Shown here: piece by piece, positions 9,405-18,375 of the stretch
Position numbering within the stretch: position 1 is the first letter of the stretch
Layout: the number at the start of each line of letters is the position of its first letter
NCBI GenBank assembly: GCA_963719515.1
Contig: CAVRCJ010000006.1
Location: 416,001 to 480,000, forward strand
Direction: 5' to 3'
DNA: 64,000 nt
Source of the DNA: an uncultured cyanobacterium
GTDB taxonomy: Bacteria; Cyanobacteriota; Cyanobacteriia; CAKZMO01
Made by a program: the position numbers and the translations under genes
Notes under the pieces: model-generated
The model's input: the letters and a program-made list of their open reading frames with translations, nothing else
Databases searched by the model: none
Told to the model about the DNA's origin: nothing

Positions 9405-9716
9405 CTAGCGCCGGGTTGATTTGCGCACATAATACTTCTTGGTTTCCTGCAGCTCGTAGGTTCCGGCCCCCATGGCAGCGCAGAAGCGACGCTCTATCTG
9501 GTCAAGTTCGTCTTGAGGGATTGAAAACCAGGAGTCTTCCGTCTCCCACTGCACCACCGTGATCACGTCTGTAAGGGAGTCATGACTAATCCAGATGTCT
9601 TTTCCTAAAAAGCCGGGATATCGAGACAGAGCTTGGGTCCAGATTTCGTCATCTCTTTGAATAAATCGCTCGCGACTGGCCTCTTCGACCCAAAACCTCA
9701 ACCATTCGATAACCAT
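9405..9716 (-). CDS. TIGR03792-like cyanobacterial protein (ABM-like fold)
   Basis: MVIEWLRF...FIQRDDEIWTQALSRYPGFLGK pattern. Confidence 0.75.
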   Translation of the reverse strand: MVIEWLRFWVEEASRERFIQRDDEIWTQALSRYPGFLGKDIWISHDSLTDVITVVQWETEDSWFSIPQDELDQIERRFCAAMGAGTYELQETKKYYVRKSTRR

Positions 9717-9893
9717 GGCCTTGAACTCTCTAACCTACTCCGCTAAGCATATCTTAGGTGGTGATTTGGCCCTTGTTGAGGGCAGGTTATCCGAACATCG
9801 CATCTAGCTGCAGCACGCTTATAATGACAAGTGCTGGGCCATTGGCGCTAGCGGGCTTGAACCCCATCTGTCCGGACGACGAGGACTGTCTCA

Positions 9894-10214
9894 ATGGAAA
9901 ACAATGTACTTAAGCAATTGCTCATGGTTGGGATTGGCACCACCTCCCTAGCTGCGGACAAGCTGCGGGAAGTGAGTGAACAATGGGTAAGGGACGGCAA
10001 ACTTGACCCCGAGCAGGCCAAGACGTTTGTCGATGATCTGATGGGTCAAATGCGCTCTGAGCAGACCAATTTTGAGGCTCAGATGCAGCGGCAGCTCAAG
10101 CAGGTTTTACAGGATTTAGGGGTTCCCCGCCAAAACGAGATGGATGAGCTGCGGGGCCGCCTTGACCGCCTAGAGCGCCAGATGCGAGACTTGGAAAATC
10201 GGCTCTGGCGATAA
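9894..10214 (+). CDS. Phasin/granule-associated family coiled-coil protein
   Basis: LLMVGIGTTSL...WVRDGKL...ELRGRLDRLERQ. Confidence 0.75.
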   Translation: MENNVLKQLLMVGIGTTSLAADKLREVSEQWVRDGKLDPEQAKTFVDDLMGQMRSEQTNFEAQMQRQLKQVLQDLGVPRQNEMDELRGRLDRLERQMRDLENRLWR

Positions 10215-10334
10215 GATCGCGTCGGCCTGGGAAACGGTAAGCTAGGAACGCTGGCGTGAGTGATCCCGCTGCCGCCCCGTCTTGCCTAACTGCCCTGACT
10301 GCTCAACTTGATTGCCCAAATTTGGAGACCTGCT

Positions 10335-10922
10335 GTGCGAGAGATTTTAATTAGCGTCGCTGTGATGATTGGCTGTGCCGCCGTGCTGGTTGTTGCTCAA
10401 CTGACGGGCTCATCGGCGATCGCGGCCCCGAGTGAAGTCCCTCGTCCGGCGTCAGCGGCATCCCCCCTAGAGCAGCGGATGGGCCCCTCTAGCGCATCCC
10501 AAACCGAACCCGAAATCATTGCCCAAGCCCCGACCCTATTTGAATCTAACCCCATGGCCTCAGAGGACTCAGCGCTTGACACAGTCACTACGGCTTCGGG
10601 CCTACAGTATATTGACGAAGTAGAAGGGACTGGCGCGCAGCCCCAGGCTGGCCAGACCGTAAGCGTTCACTATACCGGCACCCTAGAAGACGGCACCAAA
10701 TTCGACAGCTCTCGCGATCGCAATCGGCCTTTTTCGTTCCGCTTGGGCGCTGGACGGGTGATTCGCGGCTGGGATGAGGGCATTGCCACAATGCGCGTTG
10801 GCGGACAGCGCAAGCTAATCATCCCCCCCGATTTAGGCTACGGCGCGAGAGGGGCAGGTGGGGTCATTCCCCCCAACGCGACGCTCATCTTTGACGTTGA
10901 GCTGCTGCGCATTGGCGCCTAG
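10335..10922 (+). CDS. FKBP-type peptidyl-prolyl cis-trans isomerase (exported)
   Basis: [51 protein letters not shown] start after GGAG. Confidence 0.95.
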
Positions 10923-10951
10923 GATTTAGCGAGGCCAAAGGGCTTTGAGGG

Positions 10952-10994
10952 GTAGATGAGTTCTACAGGGGTCACCCCGCAGAAACTTGTCTAC
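10952..10994. terminator. Imperfect hairpin, probably the original terminator between the FKBP gene and kaiC
   Basis: GTAGATGAGTT...GGGG-TCA-CCCC...AACTTGTCTAC inverted repeat ending at the IS left junction. Confidence 0.45.
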
Positions 10995-11074
10995 CAAAGG
11001 CCGCCGCAGTGCTCCGCCTATACCGCGTAGCGGCTAGGGGGTGGTGAAGCGGCGCGTGAGCCGTAGGTGAGCAA

Positions 11075-11486
11075 TCAATCGATTTCGGCTTGCTGCTGAA
11101 TGTACTGCTTCAAAGCTGATATGGGAGCGCTGCCGCAGGAAATAAGGCAATACGACCTGCTCCAAAAAACCGGCTTACCCCGATAGACACGGTTGAGGTG
11201 TCCCGTCAAACTCTTTCCTGATTAAGCGGCTCGACACGGTTTTGAGATTGTTCACCAGCTTGGACGGCTGAACCTTGGGATTGACCGATATCAGCAAATG
11301 GATATGGTCCGGCTCACCATTGCACTCAATCAGCTCACATTCCCATTTGCCGAGGGTGGCGCGGAATATCTCGGCCAGCCGGTCTTGCATCGCAGCAGTA
11401 ATACATTTTCTGCGGTCCTCTGTGCAGACGACCAAATGAAACTGGATATTGTAAGCGCAGTGCCTAAGCTTGTTTAGGGTCTGCAT
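11075..11486 (-). pseudogene. tnpA: IS200-type Y1 (HUH) transposase, frameshifted
   Basis: HLVVCT..RRKCI, GEPDHIHLL (HUH), LKTVSSRLIRKEF; +1 frameshift near 11200 then HLNRVYRGKPVFWSRSY...LKQYIQQQ (catalytic Tyr helix) to stop at 11075. Confidence 0.88.
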
Positions 11487-12066
11487 CGGTGTGACGACTA
11501 AGCTACAATACATCAATGCTAACACTGACCCGTGAGTACAAGCTGAAGCCGACCAAACGACAGGCGATTGAGATGGAACACATCTTGTCGGTCTGCCGTA
11601 GCGTCTGGAATTATGCATTGCGAGAGCGCAAGGACTGGATTGCCTCGCGCAAAAGCTCAGTCAATACCTGCTCTTTGTGGGGCGAGTACATCGTGGCTGC
11701 TGATGCTCCGTTTCCTGGCTTTGCTGAGCAATGCAAATCGCTGACGCAAGCCAAGACGTCGAACGCAGCGCTCAAGTCGGTCAATGCCCAGGTACTTCAG
11801 CAGGTGCTCAAGACGCTAGACAAGGCGTTTCGAGACATGAAGGAGCGCGGCTTTGGGTTCCCCCGGTTCAAAAAGCGAATGCACTCCTTCGTGTTTCCGT
11901 AGCTTGGCAAGCACCTTCTGGGCAATGGGTCTGTGAAGCCCCTGCATTGGCGACGCGAGGATTCGCCAGTCCCGGCCCTATCCCGATGGCTTCAGGGTTA
12001 AGCAGGCGCGGGTTGTGAAACGTCCATCAGGGTTCTATCTGATGCTGACGTTTCAGGCTGATTTAG

Positions 12067-12458
12067 CTACTAGACAGGAAGCCCCGCGCTCTACCCGTCA
12101 GGGTGAGCGTCGGGATGAGAGTCGCGCTAGCCGAAGTGCGCCCGCAAAATGATGCACAGCGGATAGTGCGCTCAGCGCTGAGGCTAGCAGTTGGTATGAT
12201 AGAGATAGCAAGGTGATACACCCCGCAAAGAGTGTGACGGGCCCGTAGGCGAAAGCTGCAAGTCACCCGTTCCTCAGTTTGCAAATGTATCTGCGACACA
12301 TAGTGCGTATCCTCCCTCGCGGAGATGAAAATTCAAAACTCTGCCGTGGGGCATCAGGCGGAGTATAAACCTATCTCAGGATATGTCTCGGCAATAGCTG
12401 GGAGTCACTGAGGAAGCCCGCGCTGTACAGCTTGCTGTCAGCGTCGGGAGGATGTCAC
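12067..12458 (+). mobile_element. 392-bp non-autonomous IS200/IS605-type element (MITE/PATE-like) nested in tnpB
   Basis: Removing it restores tnpB frame (GCT GAT TTA G|AC ATT CCT = ADLDIP). Inserted after TTAG; left AAGC+CCCGCGCT..AGCGTCGGG hairpin; right GAAG+similar hairpin+TCAC. Confidence 0.85.
12192..12200 (+). promoter_or_regulatory. Putative extended -10 promoter inside the nested element
   Basis: TGGTATGAT fits TGnTAnnnT. Confidence 0.45.
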
Positions 12459-12478
12459 ACATTCCTCAACCCCCTGTA
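12207..12478 (+). ncRNA. Putative stand-alone TnpB omega-RNA-like transcript (scaffold plus ~20-nt flank guide)
   Basis: No ORF; TTCCTCAGT (12270-12278) pairs with ACTGAGGAA (12407-12415); GCCGTGGGGC motif resembles the outer tnpB 3' GCCGTCGGGC; ends in right-end hairpin; boundaries inferred. Confidence 0.5.
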
Positions 12479-13019
12479 GCAGGTCATATTGTTGGTGTTG
12501 ATGTTGGCCTGGAGTATTTTCTTTCCACCTCTGACGGCCTTCAGATTAAGCGCCCTCGATTCTTTGTGGATATGCAGCGCAAGCTGAAATTGCTGCAACG
12601 CAGATTGAAGCGAAAGAAGCGAGGGTCAGCAAACTGGATTAAGGCTCAGCAAAAGGTGGCGCGGCTGCACGAGTGCATCAGGAATACCCGCAAGGACTTC
12701 CACTTCAAAGTCGCACATCAGCTTTGCCATGGAGCCGATGTGATTGCAGTAGAAGACCTCAACCTAGTTGGACTGTCGCGGGGTATCCTCGGTAAGCACA
12801 TGCGCGATGCAGGCCACGGGCAGTTTCTCAATCAGATATTGCCGTGGATTGCTTGGAAGCGAGGCAAGGCGTATCTGAAGGTTGATGCTCGCGGCACTTC
12901 TCAGGAGTGCCCTGATTGTGGGGACAAAATAGTGAAGCAGCTATCTGACCGCTGGCATAGCTGCTCTTGTGGGGCGTCAATGCCTAGAGACGTTGCCAGC
13001 GGCCAGGTGATTCGACATA

Positions 13020-13178
13020 GGGCCGTCGGGCGGACGGTTCTTGAAAATGCCTGTGGAGACGGTCTAACGGGGGCAGTAGCTTAATGCTGTTGTCTAGCCA
13101 AGAGTAAAAGAAACAGGAATCTCCGACTGTACCCACAGGGTCAGGGGGAGTGCGTCAATCTTCCTGTTCACCTTTTTC
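13020..13178 (+). ncRNA. Putative omega/reRNA of the outer IS (overlaps tnpB 3' end; guide runs antisense into kaiC)
   Basis: Position expected from TnpB biology; CCTGT/ACAGG pairing and right-end hairpin present; boundaries inferred. Confidence 0.55.
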
Positions 13179-14732
13179 CTGAAAGCCCTGCACGATACGG
13201 GAAAGCTCATTACGCTCATTGACCGCTATCCGGTTAGGCGAGCCGCTGATAATCCGCTCGTATTCTCGGAAAGACTTCTTAATCTGAGGTCCGTTCTCGT
13301 CAATCATGTACTCTCGGATGCCCTTGTCATGCCAAGAGCCGCGCATTTTGAAAACGTTGATGGCCCGGGACATTTCCCCTCGAATCTCGACGTACTGAAG
13401 CATCAATATGGTGTCAGTGATGGTCGAGATATGTGAGTCGGTGATTGAGTGAGACCCCATGAATTGGTCGGTGGTGTTCGTGAAGAACCCTGTAATCTCC
13501 TCTTGTTTAGCGAACCCTGTTACTCCAATCACAAACTGACGGAAGGTATTGTTGCTGACGCCGCGGGCTAGGGCGGAGAGCGAGTCGATAGCAATGCGGG
13601 ACGGCTTAAAGTTGGCAATTTCAGACTTGATAATCTGTAGGTGGTCTTCAAGCCCAGCAGACTCGGGATAAGCGCATAGAATGCGCAGCAGACCCCGCTG
13701 CTCCAACTCCTCAAAATCGATTCCCCAGGAATAGGCGTTACGGGAGAGCTGCGCCCGCGACTCTTCGTAAGCAAAAAGGATGGCACGGCTGTTGTTTTCG
13801 CAGGCGTTCTGCAGAAACTTGCTCACTAGCATCGTCTTGCCGGTGCCGGTAGCTCCGGTAGCCAGGATGATTGAATCTTTAAAGAAACCACCGCCGCACA
13901 TCTCGTCTAGCGTCTCAACGCCTGAGGACACGCGTACGTTTGACGAGCGCTGGGTGAGGCGCATCGCTCCGAGCGGAAAGATATTGATCCCCTGATTGGT
14001 AATCGTAAAGGGATACTCTCCCTTCATGTGGGTGGTGCCTCGCAGCTTGAGGATTTCGATTGTTCGTCTACGGCGTTCTCCCTCAAGGGCGTTGCGAACG
14101 ATAACAACGTTGTCAGAGACGAATTCTTCAACGCCGTATCGTGCTACGCTGCCATATTCTTCGGTTCGCTCTGCTGTCATCACGGTGGTAACGCCCACTC
14201 GCTTTAATCGCGATGCCAGTCGGAATAGCTCGCGTCGCACAATTGAGGTGGCGTCGTACTGCTGAAAAAGGGCGGTGACAGAGTCAACCGAGACGCGAGA
14301 CGCGCTGTACTTTCGAATGGCGTATTGAGTGCGCTCGATGATTCCTGACAGGTCAAAGTTACCGACGACTTCTTGACCTTCTGGATCGGGCGAGGCGTCT
14401 AAGATGAACAGCTTTCCGTCGTCAATGAGCTGTTGAAGATCCCAGCCGAAGCTATGGGCGTTCTCAATGATGTCGGAGGGGGACTCTTCAAAAGTAATAA
14501 AGAGTCCCGGCTCGTCGAAATGAATAATGCCGTTATATAAAAAATGAATAGCAAACAGCGTTTTTCCGGTACCCGAGGTGCCGCTGACCAGCGTCGTTCT
14601 GCCCGCCGGGATACCCCCATGACTGATATCGTCGAAGCCCTCAATCATGGTCCGGAGTTTTTGAACGCCCTCTTCCCCCCTCGACGTGTCAAAGGGGTCA
14701 GTTTCGCGAGCGTTGTAGGAGTTTGGCTGCAT
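13155..14732 (-). CDS. kaiC: Circadian clock protein KaiC
   Basis: Two Walker A motifs (GTSGTGKT, GATGTGKT), phosphosite region SHISTITD. Confidence 0.98.
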   Translation of the reverse strand: MQPNSYNARETDPFDTSRGEEGVQKLRTMIEGFDDISHGGIPAGRTTLVSGTSGTGKTLFAIHFLYNGIIHFDEPGLFITFEESPSDIIENAHSFGWDLQQLIDDGKLFILDASPDPEGQEVVGNFDLSGIIERTQYAIRKYSASRVSVDSVTALFQQYDATSIVRRELFRLASRLKRVGVTTVMTAERTEEYGSVARYGVEEFVSDNVVIVRNALEGERRRRTIEILKLRGTTHMKGEYPFTITNQGINIFPLGAMRLTQRSSNVRVSSGVETLDEMCGGGFFKDSIILATGATGTGKTMLVSKFLQNACENNSRAILFAYEESRAQLSRNAYSWGIDFEELEQRGLLRILCAYPESAGLEDHLQIIKSEIANFKPSRIAIDSLSALARGVSNNTFRQFVIGVTGFAKQEEITGFFTNTTDQFMGSHSITDSHISTITDTILMLQYVEIRGEMSRAINVFKMRGSWHDKGIREYMIDENGPQIKKSFREYERIISGSPNRIAVNERNELSRIVQGFQEKGEQED

Positions 14733-14832
14733 GGGCTATGCAATCTAAGTTAATACAGGGTCGTAACACTCTCAATCCTAGCCGGTTATGCGTCACTAGG
14801 GACAAGGCTACAGTACCGAAGAGCCGACGCTA

Positions 14833-15153
14833 CTAACTGTCGTCGCTCAGCTCACCATTGGACAGGGTATCGTAGAGCAAGTCTAGTCCAATCAGCACCT
14901 TCTCTCGATCAGACAAGTCCCCAATGATTTTACGAACGGGCGGCGGCAGAATTTTGGAGAGCGTCGGCGTTGCTAGGATCTTGTCCTCTTCAGCGAGCTG
15001 GGGATTCTTCATCACATCAATTACCTTAAGCGCGTAGACGCCATGAAACTCTTGCTCAAGGATGCTGTTGAGCGTTCTCAGGGCCCTCAGGGAGTTTGGA
15101 GTGTTGCCTGCAACGTATAGTTTCAAGACGTAGGTTTTTTGGGGAGGAGTCAT
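14833..15153 (-). CDS. kaiB: Circadian clock protein KaiB
   Basis: [37 protein letters not shown]. Confidence 0.98.
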
Positions 15154-15272
15154 AGGAGAGAGTCCGTACCTCTAGAGTGGACTGCTCAAAGCAGCATGCT
15201 AGAGACCGTAAATAAGGCCAAATAGGGCAAGGAAGTGGGCTTGTGACCAGGAAGGGAGCGATTTCCCGACGG

Positions 15273-16160
15273 CTAGGCCTGCCGAGGAATCGATCGCCTA
15301 TACATTTCGCATAGGTTAGAGAGAGTATCGATCAAGGTCAATCGGTAGTCTAGAAGAATTTCCTCGCTGCGGCCCTCGATTTTCAGCTGCTTGGAAAATG
15401 CATCCATAAGGTCCATGTGGATCTCAACGACTTGAACAATGGGCACGTCAGCAAAAAAGGCTGAGTTGACATAATTATCAATCTTTTGGTTGAGCAACGG
15501 ATCGTCTGTAAAGTAATTGAGAATAATTTCCTGGTAGCTTCGCTTCAGCTGAGCGAGCTGCCGCTGTTTTTCCTCTGAAGGTAGATAGCGCAGAAATCGC
15601 TCTGGATCTCGCTTATAGTAAACGCTCAAATACCCTAGCCTCTCTTTCAGCTTTTCGGCCAGTCGGTCTTGCTGACAGGCGAGCAGCGCATGCTCTTGCT
15701 TGTCGATATCATTGTGTGAAGGCTGCTCAGTTTCGCCTGATAAGGGGATTTTGAGAAACTGGTTGATCACGCGATCGATGTGGGACGGCAGCTGGTTGAG
15801 CTGCTGGAACTCCAGCCAATAGATCGCGGTGTAATATCCAAATTTATCTGGGCTGTCGGCCTGCTCGGCGATCGCCTCATCTTCGAGACGTCTGTCCCTA
15901 ATTAAAATTGTAGGCAACAAAATCGAGCGCGATCGCAGTTCGCCAAGCGCTGACGGAAGCTTGCCCTGAGCATCTAGAATTAGACAGTCAATACCATTGC
16001 GGCAGGCTTCAATCGCCTCAATGAAATCGCTGTGGGTCAGAAATATTTCGAGCTGATACGCGTCGCCGTCTAAACTTGACTTTAGTGAAGGCGCTACCGC
16101 ATCAGTCGCTAAGTAGGCATAGACAACTATCTTTGGCTTTGATTCCTGTTTGGAGGCCAT
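15273..16160 (-). CDS. kaiA: Circadian clock protein KaiA
   Basis: LKERLGYLSVYYKRDP, LLDYRLTLID, LCEMYRRSIPR; upstream of kaiBC. Confidence 0.96.
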   Translation of the reverse strand: MASKQESKPKIVVYAYLATDAVAPSLKSSLDGDAYQLEIFLTHSDFIEAIEACRNGIDCLILDAQGKLPSALGELRSRSILLPTILIRDRRLEDEAIAEQADSPDKFGYYTAIYWLEFQQLNQLPSHIDRVINQFLKIPLSGETEQPSHNDIDKQEHALLACQQDRLAEKLKERLGYLSVYYKRDPERFLRYLPSEEKQRQLAQLKRSYQEIILNYFTDDPLLNQKIDNYVNSAFFADVPIVQVVEIHMDLMDAFSKQLKIEGRSEEILLDYRLTLIDTLSNLCEMYRRSIPRQA

Positions 16161-16257
16161 AAAAGCGCTCTACAATCACGATACATTGGTGCGGGGGCAC
16201 TACGGTCTATTGTAGAAGCTGAGCGACCATCTACTCTTGTGCCTTAGCGGTACTTCT

Positions 16258-18375
16258 ATGGATAGCGAATCGATTCAGGCTCTGATCATAGCGGTACCGA
16301 CCTGTAATGCCCAGGATCGACTGATATCGATTTTTGAACAGCTTACGACTGCCGAAGGAGAGTGGCTTTTGATCTGGGACGAGGATCCTGTCGGAGCTTT
16401 GCCCCTAGCCTCACTGTCGCAGCTGATGTCAGCGATAATTTGTGGACTGACCCAGCCTATTGACTCGCTGCCCTCCCACGACAGCGCATCAGCCCCTGTT
16501 TCTAGCCGCGATGATGCGGCCCCCATGCCGCTGCTGCAATCGACCCTGAAGCAAGTGCTTGAGCGGCCCGAGCTGCGCCTGCAGCTGAAACCGCTGCAGC
16601 TTGTTCCTGCCACTTGGTCTGTGCAAGAGTTCAAAGCTTATCTGCGGCACTATTCCGACGATGCTGCCCAATTTGAGTGGGTCGCCGTTGACGCCGAGCA
16701 GCGCCCCCTAGGGTTGCTCAACCCAACTCGGCTGGCACCGACTTGGAACAATCCACTGCCCTCCCAAGAGCTTATGGCTCAAAACGCAGAACTGGTGCAA
16801 ACTAGCCAGCTTAAAAGTAGCTATCTTGCCTATATCAGCCACGAAGTTAAGAACCCAATAACGGCAATGCTGGGGCTTTCAGAATTGCTAGCCGATTCCG
16901 CCCTCAAGAGCTTGAGCGATCGCCAGCAGCGCTATATCCAGCTCATTCGGCACAACAGCCAGCGCCTCGCTGCCATAGCCAACGACATGCTCGACCTATC
17001 GCGCGTCGAGCTAGGTCAGCTACAGCTTTCCTATCAAAGCCTATCGATTCGACAGCTGTGCGATCTCGCTTGGCAATTTCAGCCCCGCGCCGCTGCGCAG
17101 CCTCCTGCCGCTACAGTTCCGCCTTCGATCAGCATTCAGCTAGGGCTGAGCGAAATTGTGGCAGACAAGCAGCGTCTGGTCCAGATGCTGGCTCAGCTGC
17201 TCGCGAATGCCCGCCGTTCTACGGCCACATTTGGCGAGGTGGGCATTGCTGTTGAGCAGTGGGGACAGTGGTATGCCTTTACAATTTGGGATACCGGGAT
17301 AGGCATTCCTCCAGAGAGACAGACGCTACTGCTGCAAACCCTACAGCCTTTGGAAAATCCCTCTACCCATGCTGCAGAATCCGGACTGGGACTGGTTTTA
17401 ACCCAGCGACTGGTCCAGCTGCACGGCGGCGATCTAACCTTTGTCTCGAATCCTGGAAGAAGTGAGTTCACGCTGCTTTTGCCGCCTGCGCCGTCCCACA
17501 TTTCTGCGCCACCCTCTCCTCAAAGTAGTGCCGCAGCGGTTCAGATGACTCACCCTCTCGCTGTTGTCGCGGAAGCAGCGGCCTCCCACCTGACCCAGCT
17601 CGTTTCACAGCTCAGCGACATCGGTTATCGTGTCGCTGTCGCCCGCTCGGGAACGGAGGCGCTGCAAAAGGTGAGGCGGCTGCATCCCAAAATCCTCTTT
17701 CTAGATCCAGTTTTGCCTCTGCTCTCGGGCTGGGACGTCCTAGCGCTGGTCAAGGGTGACTTGGCGACTCGGCATATTCCGACTATTCTCAGCACGGCGT
17801 CCACCGCACATCCTTTAGAACGAGGGCAGGCGGACGCCGTGCTATCACTGCCGTCAACGCCATCTGCCCTGCTGCAAACGCTGGCCGATACGGTGCCGCA
17901 GGGACTGCACTCCTCAGCGTCAGCCCCCCGGACGGTGACGCCCCGAGCTCCCTCGTCAACAACGCTGACGGTGCTCTATTTCAATCCATCTGAGGAAACG
18001 GAAGCGCCGTCTACGATAGACTTCAGTGGATTACTTCATCCCTATGGCTGCCGCGTACTAGAGGTGGACGATCTCGATCAAGCTGGCCTCGTTGCGCAAG
18101 TTTGGAAGCCCAATGTGGCTCTGCTGGGCCTTTCTGTTCCGGCGAATCCTGCCTACCTCCGGCAGCTGGGGCAGCTGCGCAGTCTGGCGCTGCTGCCGAT
18201 GGTGGTCCTTGAGCCCACGATCGCCGAAGCAGGCCACCAGGCCGGACTGCTCGTCTACCCCTGCCTAATGTCGCCACATGGCCTCAAAGGAGGAGCATCG
18301 GTTGATTTGACCCTGCTGGTGCAGGTCATTCGCGTTGCCGCGCAGGGCGCAACGCTTCCGCCGGAGCCACAGTGA
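16258..18375 (+). CDS. Hybrid sensor histidine kinase with receiver and receiver-like domains
   Basis: H-box SHEVKNP, DTGIGI, SGLGL; receiver ILFLDPVLPLLSGWDVL; second degenerate receiver. Confidence 0.85.
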   Translation: MDSESIQALIIAVPTCNAQDRLISIFEQLTTAEGEWLLIWDEDPVGALPLASLSQLMSAIICGLTQPIDSLPSHDSASAPVSSRDDAAPMPLLQSTLKQVLERPELRLQLKPLQLVPATWSVQEFKAYLRHYSDDAAQFEWVAVDAEQRPLGLLNPTRLAPTWNNPLPSQELMAQNAELVQTSQLKSSYLAYISHEVKNPITAMLGLSELLADSALKSLSDRQQRYIQLIRHNSQRLAAIANDMLDLSRVELGQLQLSYQSLSIRQLCDLAWQFQPRAAAQPPAATVPPSISIQLGLSEIVADKQRLVQMLAQLLANARRSTATFGEVGIAVEQWGQWYAFTIWDTGIGIPPERQTLLLQTLQPLENPSTHAAESGLGLVLTQRLVQLHGGDLTFVSNPGRSEFTLLLPPAPSHISAPPSPQSSAAAVQMTHPLAVVAEAAASHLTQLVSQLSDIGYRVAVARSGTEALQKVRRLHPKILFLDPVLPLLSGWDVLALVKGDLATRHIPTILSTASTAHPLERGQADAVLSLPSTPSALLQTLADTVPQGLHSSASAPRTVTPRAPSSTTLTVLYFNPSEETEAPSTIDFSGLLHPYGCRVLEVDDLDQAGLVAQVWKPNVALLGLSVPANPAYLRQLGQLRSLALLPMVVLEPTIAEAGHQAGLLVYPCLMSPHGLKGGASVDLTLLVQVIRVAAQGATLPPEPQ

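Follow-up and report, generated by a model that had tools for sequence, protein, structure and literature searches.

In a window of 64,000 nucleotides from an uncultured cyanobacterium (contig CAVRCJ010000006.1 of assembly GCA_963719515.1, positions 416,001 to 480,000; all coordinates below count from the first base of this stretch), the clock gene kaiC follows directly upon kaiA and kaiB. Its product of 525 amino acids carries the double KaiC/RecA-like domain (PF06745) and ends in ...EKGEQED. On the other side, kaiC faces a gene for an FKBP-type peptidyl-prolyl isomerase, from which it is separated by a block of 2164 bp (10995..13158). We identify this block as an element of the IS200/IS605 family of insertion sequences (IS). 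The last four bases of the block on the plus strand, TCAA, form the entire stop codon of kaiC (TGA, the complement of 13155-13157) and the third base of its last codon (GAT, 13158-13160). We consider it very probable that an IS605-type element inserted at a kaiC gene end reading G-TAG and thereby replaced the stop codon in register. An initial annotation of this DNA had made the same claim, and it is supported by the identity of the element, by ends that are fixed by homologous copies and by the gene neighbourhood in a relative of the same genus (G002). The positions that it had given for the four short motifs CTAC, TCAA, AGTG and GAAT all proved right when checked against the sequence. The features of the locus are listed in Table 1, together with three loci of other genomes that are discussed further below.

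Table 1 Features of the kaiC locus and of three genes in other genomes that end on the TGA of a homologous element.
Feature	Position	Strand	Basis and remarks
FKBP-type peptidyl-prolyl isomerase gene	10308..10922	+	PF00254, E=5.5e-39; same gene adjoins kaiC in locus L032 of same-genus G002
Native intergenic hairpin	10952..10994	.	5' arm in kaiC sense would have held the original TAG stop; now separated from kaiC, remains beside the FKBP gene
Target / left cleavage tetranucleotide CTAC	10991-10994	+	complement GTAG, with the inferred former TAG stop of kaiC
IS200/IS605-family element, IS605-type	10995..13158	+ (top strand)	2164 bp; 1772 bp minus nested insert; single copy in genome
Left end of element	10995..11074	+	guide AGTG 11008-11011; subterminal imperfect hairpin ~11012-11044; DNA fold; conserved in 16 homologues
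tnpA pseudogene (Y1 HUH transposase)	11075..11486	-	1-nt frameshift near 11201; region of the catalytic Tyr out of frame
tnpB pseudogene	11516..13084	+	in-frame TAG 11900-11902, frameshift near 11939, nested insertion 12067-12458; by comparison with intact homologues
TTAG target of nested element	12063..12066	+	
Nested protein-less IS200/IS605-type mini-element, PATE/MITE-like	12067..12458	+	392 bp; ends TCAC
Right end of element	13085..13158	+	guide GAAT 13117-13120, hairpin 13121-13150, linker, TCAA 13155-13158; DNA fold; 14/14 homologues
New composite stem-loop at kaiC 3' end	13111..13170	-	encloses the right-end hairpin; outer stem of IS bases 13112-13119 and the last kaiC codons; U-rich run follows
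kaiC	13155..14732	-	PF06745, E=3.8e-123, 2 stretches; list of open reading frames; stop 13155-13157 and base 13158 IS-derived
kaiB	14833-15153		upstream of kaiC; Pfam search
kaiA	15273-16160		upstream of kaiC; Pfam search
PhyH-family gene ended by IS TGA	L062:2167-2979		Pfam; last residue now His; left flank CTAC found, element 1771 bp
PDZ/radical-SAM/DUF512 gene ended by IS TGA	L071:161-1504		Pfam; last residue now His; left flank CTAC found, element 1789 bp
LysR-type gene (LysR_substrate) ended by IS TGA	L070:925-1467		Pfam; last residue now Pro; left end not located

The two genes of the element were identified by Pfam searches: tnpA, on the minus strand, matches Y1_Tnp (PF01797), and tnpB, on the plus strand, carries HTH_OrfB_IS605, OrfB_IS605 and Cas12f1-like_TNB, its matches to PF12323, PF01385 and PF07282 being spread over two pieces of open reading frame (ORF). 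This divergent arrangement of tnpA and tnpB is the layout of IS605-type elements. Both ends form subterminal hairpins that, in the DNA fold, begin with CTCC and stand directly 3' of their guide tetranucleotide, and by inspection neither terminus repeats the other in inverted form. The flanks, ...GTCTAC on the left and TCTTCC... on the right, share nothing, so that there is no target-site duplication, and the same holds for the flanks of homologous elements. With a tnpA, a tnpB, a fixed tetranucleotide in the left flank and guides that match the cleavage sites, the block is a member of the IS200/IS605 family showing every defining feature that could be assessed, and by analogy it would have moved through single-strand excision and integration by TnpA.

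A search of the 5.28-Mb genome with positions 10900-13250 returned one full-length match, the query itself, and the remaining matches covered only query positions 1157-1577, a repeat nested in the element. Since the element is thus single-copy in its own genome, its ends were checked in other genomes. The 3' 700 bp of the element found matches in 100 of the 401 genomes of the class that were searched. In the homologous loci retrieved, both ends of the element were anchored by BLAST (basic local alignment search tool) and then compared in register. On the left, similarity starts immediately 3' of a tetranucleotide that is CTAC in 14 of 16 loci, CTAT in one and CCAC in one; on the right, it stops at ...GCGTCAA in all 14 loci, and the flanks past both ends are mutually unrelated. 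The initial annotation had held that other copies with different ends would speak against it, and the left and right ends of these copies instead agree with those of the window in the proportions just given. As the anchored homologues lose similarity at exactly these two points, the ends assigned in the window are, on this comparison, beyond chance. Before the hairpins, 13 of the 16 homologues have the tetranucleotide AGTG on the left and 14 of 14 have GAAT on the right. Two intact homologues (L062 and L071) measure 1771 and 1789 bp, compared to 1772 bp for the element of the window minus its nested insert.

As described in two papers on IS608 (PMC3201880, PMC5934647), the left cleavage site TTAC of that element goes with the guide AAAG and the right cleavage site TCAA with the guide GAAT; each guide immediately precedes the foot of its hairpin, with base pairing as A+16:T-3 and A+17:T-4. 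The combinations AGTG/CTAC and GAAT/TCAA of the window fit this pairing, with guide position 1 opposite target position -3 and guide position 2 opposite -4, which bears out what the initial annotation had claimed for both ends. In the IS608-type rule, guide position 4 pairs with target position -1. A regular expression for the left-end guide gave 30 matches over the fetched loci, 10 of which lay within elements or at the edge of a locus and were dropped. Among the 20 left ends kept, AGTG stands beside CTAC in 14 of 15 cases (CCAC in one), the single GGTG beside CTAC, and AGTA beside CTAT in 3 of 4 (CTAC in one). The three left ends that combine AGTA with CTAT agree with a contact between the fourth guide base and target position -1, and this covariation of guide and flank supports both the IS608 rule and the ends assigned in the window.

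Read on the opposite strand, CTAC is G-TAG and TCAA is T-TGA, with the stop at the same offset in both. Since the target and the right end of the element are both antisense stops at the same offset, the in-register swap is automatic and no remarkable coincidence. Any gene ending in G-TAG is a site at which this clade of elements swaps TAG for TGA and otherwise alters a single base, the third of the last codon. Insertion of IS200/IS605 elements entails neither duplication nor loss of bases, according to PMC3201880 and PMC7290912, and removal of 10995-13158 therefore predicts a kaiC end of GAG TAG. The in-silico excision indeed yielded GAG TAG in place of the present GAT TGA, with an unchanged length of 525 residues and Glu instead of Asp as last residue, in line with the GAG TAG end and unchanged KaiC length obtained in the initial annotation by joining the flanks; its assignment of the kaiC stop and of the final base of the last Asp codon to the terminal TCAA is also confirmed in the sequence and by the homologous right ends.

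We propose that an IS605-type element with divergent tnpA and tnpB would have inserted through single-strand 'peel and paste' transposition at the plus-strand CTAC that is the complement of the G-TAG ending kaiC. With nothing duplicated or lost, the last four bases of the element, TCAA, would have taken the place of CTAC beside kaiC, turning G-TAG into T-TGA on the kaiC strand in the same register and GAG into GAT (Glu to Asp), with all 525 residues kept. Later, the element would have decayed through a frameshift in tnpA and through a stop codon, a frameshift and the insertion of a mini-element in tnpB.

The state before the insertion can be compared to relatives of the same genus. In G002 (locus L032), the FKBP gene and kaiC face each other across a short spacer that holds no IS, and the TAG of kaiC lies inside a strong hairpin stem. 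Judging by this locus, the FKBP gene is natively next to kaiC and in convergent orientation. After in-silico excision the window is collinear with L032, with 80% identity at the FKBP end and 82% at the kaiC end and a poorly alignable spacer, and the reconstructed kaiC stop falls in the 5' arm of the hairpin at 10952-10994, the same arrangement as in G002. The initial annotation had suggested to align this junction with that of a relative lacking the IS or to look for empty sites; the former was found in G002, and the latter, a conspecific empty allele, was not found in the contigs of four public runs. In a second relative, G001 (L033, ~200-840), about 640 bp with another plus-strand ORF lie between the FKBP gene and kaiC, so that the intergenic spot is not invariant in the genus. 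kaiC ends in TAG in both same-genus relatives and in 12 among 28 relatives, and the KaiC tails of the 28 proteins compared differ in length and sequence past ...QGFQEK. Because the tail varies in this way, KaiC is almost certainly intact, and the exchange of Glu for Asp at its last residue is probably neutral.

Several observations weigh against an insertion at G-TAG as described. Two of the 16 left flanks are other than CTAC, and one AGTA guide stands beside CTAC. In kaiC DNA, the nearest relative without the IS reaches an identity of only about 81%, and its KaiC tail differs (…EKGEESGL), so that we infer the exact bases before the insertion from the mechanism and have not observed them. No conspecific empty allele was seen: no contig in the four public runs joins 10994 to 13159, though contigs cannot show absence, and these runs were the best-matching ones of a single study, searched as contigs only and possibly the source of the assembly itself. 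An exact scan of metagenome contigs with 20 nt from the 3' end of kaiC matched at 6 loci, all of which are unrelated genes sharing the peptide VQGFQEK and not kaiC. Public metagenome contigs do bridge the left junction (X1 and X2) and the right junction (X1 and X3) with 0-3 differences, but the runs in which they were found may be the assembly's own source and are then not independent of it.

On the same material, two other explanations of the locus were weighed. The left flank might have come to kaiC only secondarily, the FKBP gene having been brought in by a rearrangement or by an IS-mediated deletion, in which case the rebuilt GAG TAG would be fictitious. The variability of the region in the genus, with the ~640 bp and additional ORF of G001, and a spacer that barely aligns between the window and G002 would fit such a history, but in G002 the FKBP gene and kaiC form the same convergent pair, their spacer is about as long and a hairpin covers the stop of kaiC, the genome has no second copy of the IS to recombine with, and the left flank ends in the family target CTAC; we thus regard this explanation as very improbable. 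Hardly credible at all, and slightly less so than a rearranged flank, is a juxtaposition produced by a chimeric join at a repeat during assembly: the element contains a 53-copy repeat able to mislead assemblers, but both junctions are more than 700 bp away from this repeat, the IS is complete, collinear and of the expected length, and both junctions are spanned by the public-run contigs mentioned above, which are perhaps not independent of the assembly. Apart from the junctions, some of these contigs differ from the window by a C at 11900, giving CAG where tnpB of the window has TAG, and by C and G at 13106-13107. If the differing contigs derive from the kaiC locus, at least two haplotypes would share the insertion.

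For the insertion at the kaiC stop itself, recurrence was assessed on 23 right ends from other genomes, namely the 14 BLAST-anchored ones and 9 found by regular expression in further fetched regions. In 4 of the 23 copies, an open frame of at least 180 codons ends on the TGA of the IS, and three of these frames are supported by Pfam (Table 1, last three rows). The fourth (L077, 227 codons) has no Pfam match, is of low complexity and looks spurious, and it was not counted. As a crude null we used ORF-based gene calls in the genome of the window (4039 calls, 82% coverage), which gave 551 G-TAG gene ends versus 7139 non-genic GTAG sites, or 7.2%. Measured against this crude value, 3 of 23 do not indicate a preference of the IS clade for stop codons (P(>=3 of 23) = 0.23), and such a preference was rejected. 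Since the recurrence is no more than chance, the kaiC case is one of a recurrent and expected class of tolerated insertions, neither targeted nor adaptive. The rule that emerges is that an element with a CTAC target and a TCAA right end can occupy any G-TAG gene end with the length of the ORF kept. In the same crude calls, TAG ends 1978 of the 4039 genes, an unusually high share, and the G-TAG gene ends are therefore common landing sites for CTAC-targeting elements in this genome.

The element works like IS608 with a different left pair of guide and target, and the stop swap follows trivially from the known mechanism. The likeness to IS608 (ISHp608) of Helicobacter pylori extends to a Y1 HUH TnpA together with TnpB, subterminal imperfect hairpins, the lack of inverted repeats and of a target duplication, insertion 3' of a tetranucleotide recognised by four guide bases that precede the left hairpin, and an identical right pair GAAT/TCAA (PMC5934647). 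Unlike IS608 with its TTAC/AAAG, the element of the window has the target CTAC with the guide AGTG, a divergent tnpA and tnpB, and the state of a pseudogenised fossil. The spacings also differ: the cleavage site and the foot of the left hairpin are 17 nt apart compared to 19 in IS608, and the right hairpin and TCAA are 4 nt apart compared to 10, the IS608 values being taken from PMC3201880. With IS605 of H. pylori and the IS605-type elements of Halanaerobium hydrogeniformans, as portrayed in PMC7290912, it shares the divergent tnpA and tnpB, the definition of the family and the frequent decay of both genes, whereas the host phylum and the end sequences are different. A literature search of limited coverage returned no description of stop-codon replacement by an IS200/IS605 element and none of an IS at kaiC.

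TnpB of ISDra2 takes part in homing with an omega-RNA: the right end of the element encodes a guide RNA whose guide is the flank past the right end, and the vacated site is the target of TnpB. By likeness to ISDra2, the guide of the element described here would be antisense of the kaiC 3' end, and the target of TnpB would be CTAC plus that flank. Unlike in ISDra2, tnpB of the window has three lesions, no homing activity is expected, and an Rfam search over 9500-16500 gave 0 matches at E up to 1.

With its guide and target covarying across cyanobacterial copies, the kaiC insertion is a clean natural illustration of target choice encoded by the transposon in the IS200/IS605 family. For clock biology it makes a small practical point, as the 3' untranslated region (UTR) of kaiBC is now IS sequence, which could matter for studies of mRNA processing or for gene annotation. 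In annotations, the kaiC stop is to be recorded as IS-derived and the genes of the IS as pseudogenes.

The insertion also changed the surroundings of the kaiBC 3' end. The initial annotation had stated that the native 3' hairpin of kaiC was displaced by 2.16 kb. The hairpin exists and the block between it and kaiC measures 2164 bp; its reading as a displaced terminator holds only in part, since a consensus scan for intrinsic terminators over 10700-13400 calls neither the native hairpin at 10952-10994 nor the new composite stem-loop at 13111-13170, both being stable hairpins of non-canonical type. On the kaiC-sense strand, the native hairpin alone has a folding energy of -20.8 kcal/mol, and in its 86-nt context it stands out (z = -4.0; 0 of 200 shuffles as stable). 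The composite stem-loop reaches -21.3 kcal/mol with z -1.44 in context and 17 of 200 shuffles as stable. It arises from a perfect complementarity of 8 nt between conserved IS bases (13112-13119) and the first kaiC bases past the junction (13161-13168), which gives a stem-loop of -21 kcal/mol on both strands. An extended pairing of guide and flank as a feature of the family was considered and rejected, as the 8 nt are peculiar to the copy of the window and the 25 other right ends pair over 2-6 nt. On the plus strand, in 10952-11000, the insertion came between the old hairpin and the T-rich stretch, complementary to the kaiC tail, that formerly followed it. Judging from this arrangement, the 3' end of the FKBP gene itself and the termination of its transcript may be affected as much as those of kaiC.

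It could be argued that the right end of the dead IS was co-opted as a new kaiBC 3' end and replaced the displaced hairpin as a structure that stabilises or terminates the mRNA. The composite stem-loop is as stable as the old hairpin, the complementarity of 8 nt occurs in the window copy only, and positions 13106-13107 are A,A in the window compared to C,G in environmental contigs and homologues, a change by which the kaiC strand gains a longer U run. However, the composite fold is unremarkable in its context, as the shuffles indicate, the terminator scan calls nothing at its position, its outer stem is AU-rich and interrupted by a 10-nt internal loop, and a lone two-base polymorphism is equally expected from the neutral decay of a dead element. 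On balance, we consider such a co-option unlikely. It is similarly doubtful that the clock operon has acquired this right end as a functional component, in which the stem-loop and the U-rich run would define or stabilise the 3' end of the kaiBC mRNA and would have been improved by the derived change at 13106-13107. If this were true, transcription running out of the IS would yield RNA antisense to the 3' end of kaiC and, more generally, IS clades with an antisense-stop target and right end could establish themselves at TAG stops and reorganise 3' UTRs while the protein stays untouched.

As to the decay of the element, the PF01797 match of tnpA falls into two pieces in different frames (profile positions 2-86 at 11202-11456 with 98 bits, and 92-121 at 11090-11179), and intact homologues encode a TnpA of 136 and a TnpB of about 395 amino acids. 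With its frameshifted tnpA, its tnpB carrying a stop, a frameshift and a nested insert, and no sister copy in the genome, the element appears to be dead and is probably immobile. Being probably immobile, it leaves kaiC dependent on IS-derived bases for its stop.

The insert in tnpB belongs to a repeat family with 53 full-length copies in the genome at 96-100% identity, in which the left ends follow TTAG in 74 of 76 cases (TTAA in 2) and the right ends finish with GTCAC in 74 of 74. Its first 65 and last 86 nt are common to 1.49-kb tnpB elements of the same genome, and its ends are also shared, at lower identity, with three copies of about 1.8 kb that carry an intact Y1 tnpA. Mobilisation by a serine recombinase of the IS607 type was considered, as the flanks first looked random, and was dropped after the genome gave 0 Resolvase matches and the TTAG target was found. 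Like the PATEs of Haloquadratum, as characterised in PMC3119063, the nested element is protein-less and multi-copy, with IS200/IS605-type ends and no duplication; unlike the PATEs, it has the target TTAG and shares its ends with the tnpB elements and the larger tnpA-bearing elements just mentioned. Applied to the tetranucleotides that precede its hairpins (AAGC at the left end, GAAG at the right end), the IS608 mapping yields TTAG and TCAC, and this correct prediction of its own target and right end provides an internal check of the guide rule. Excision of 12067-12458 restores the frame of tnpB at this point with a residue count equal to that of the homologues.

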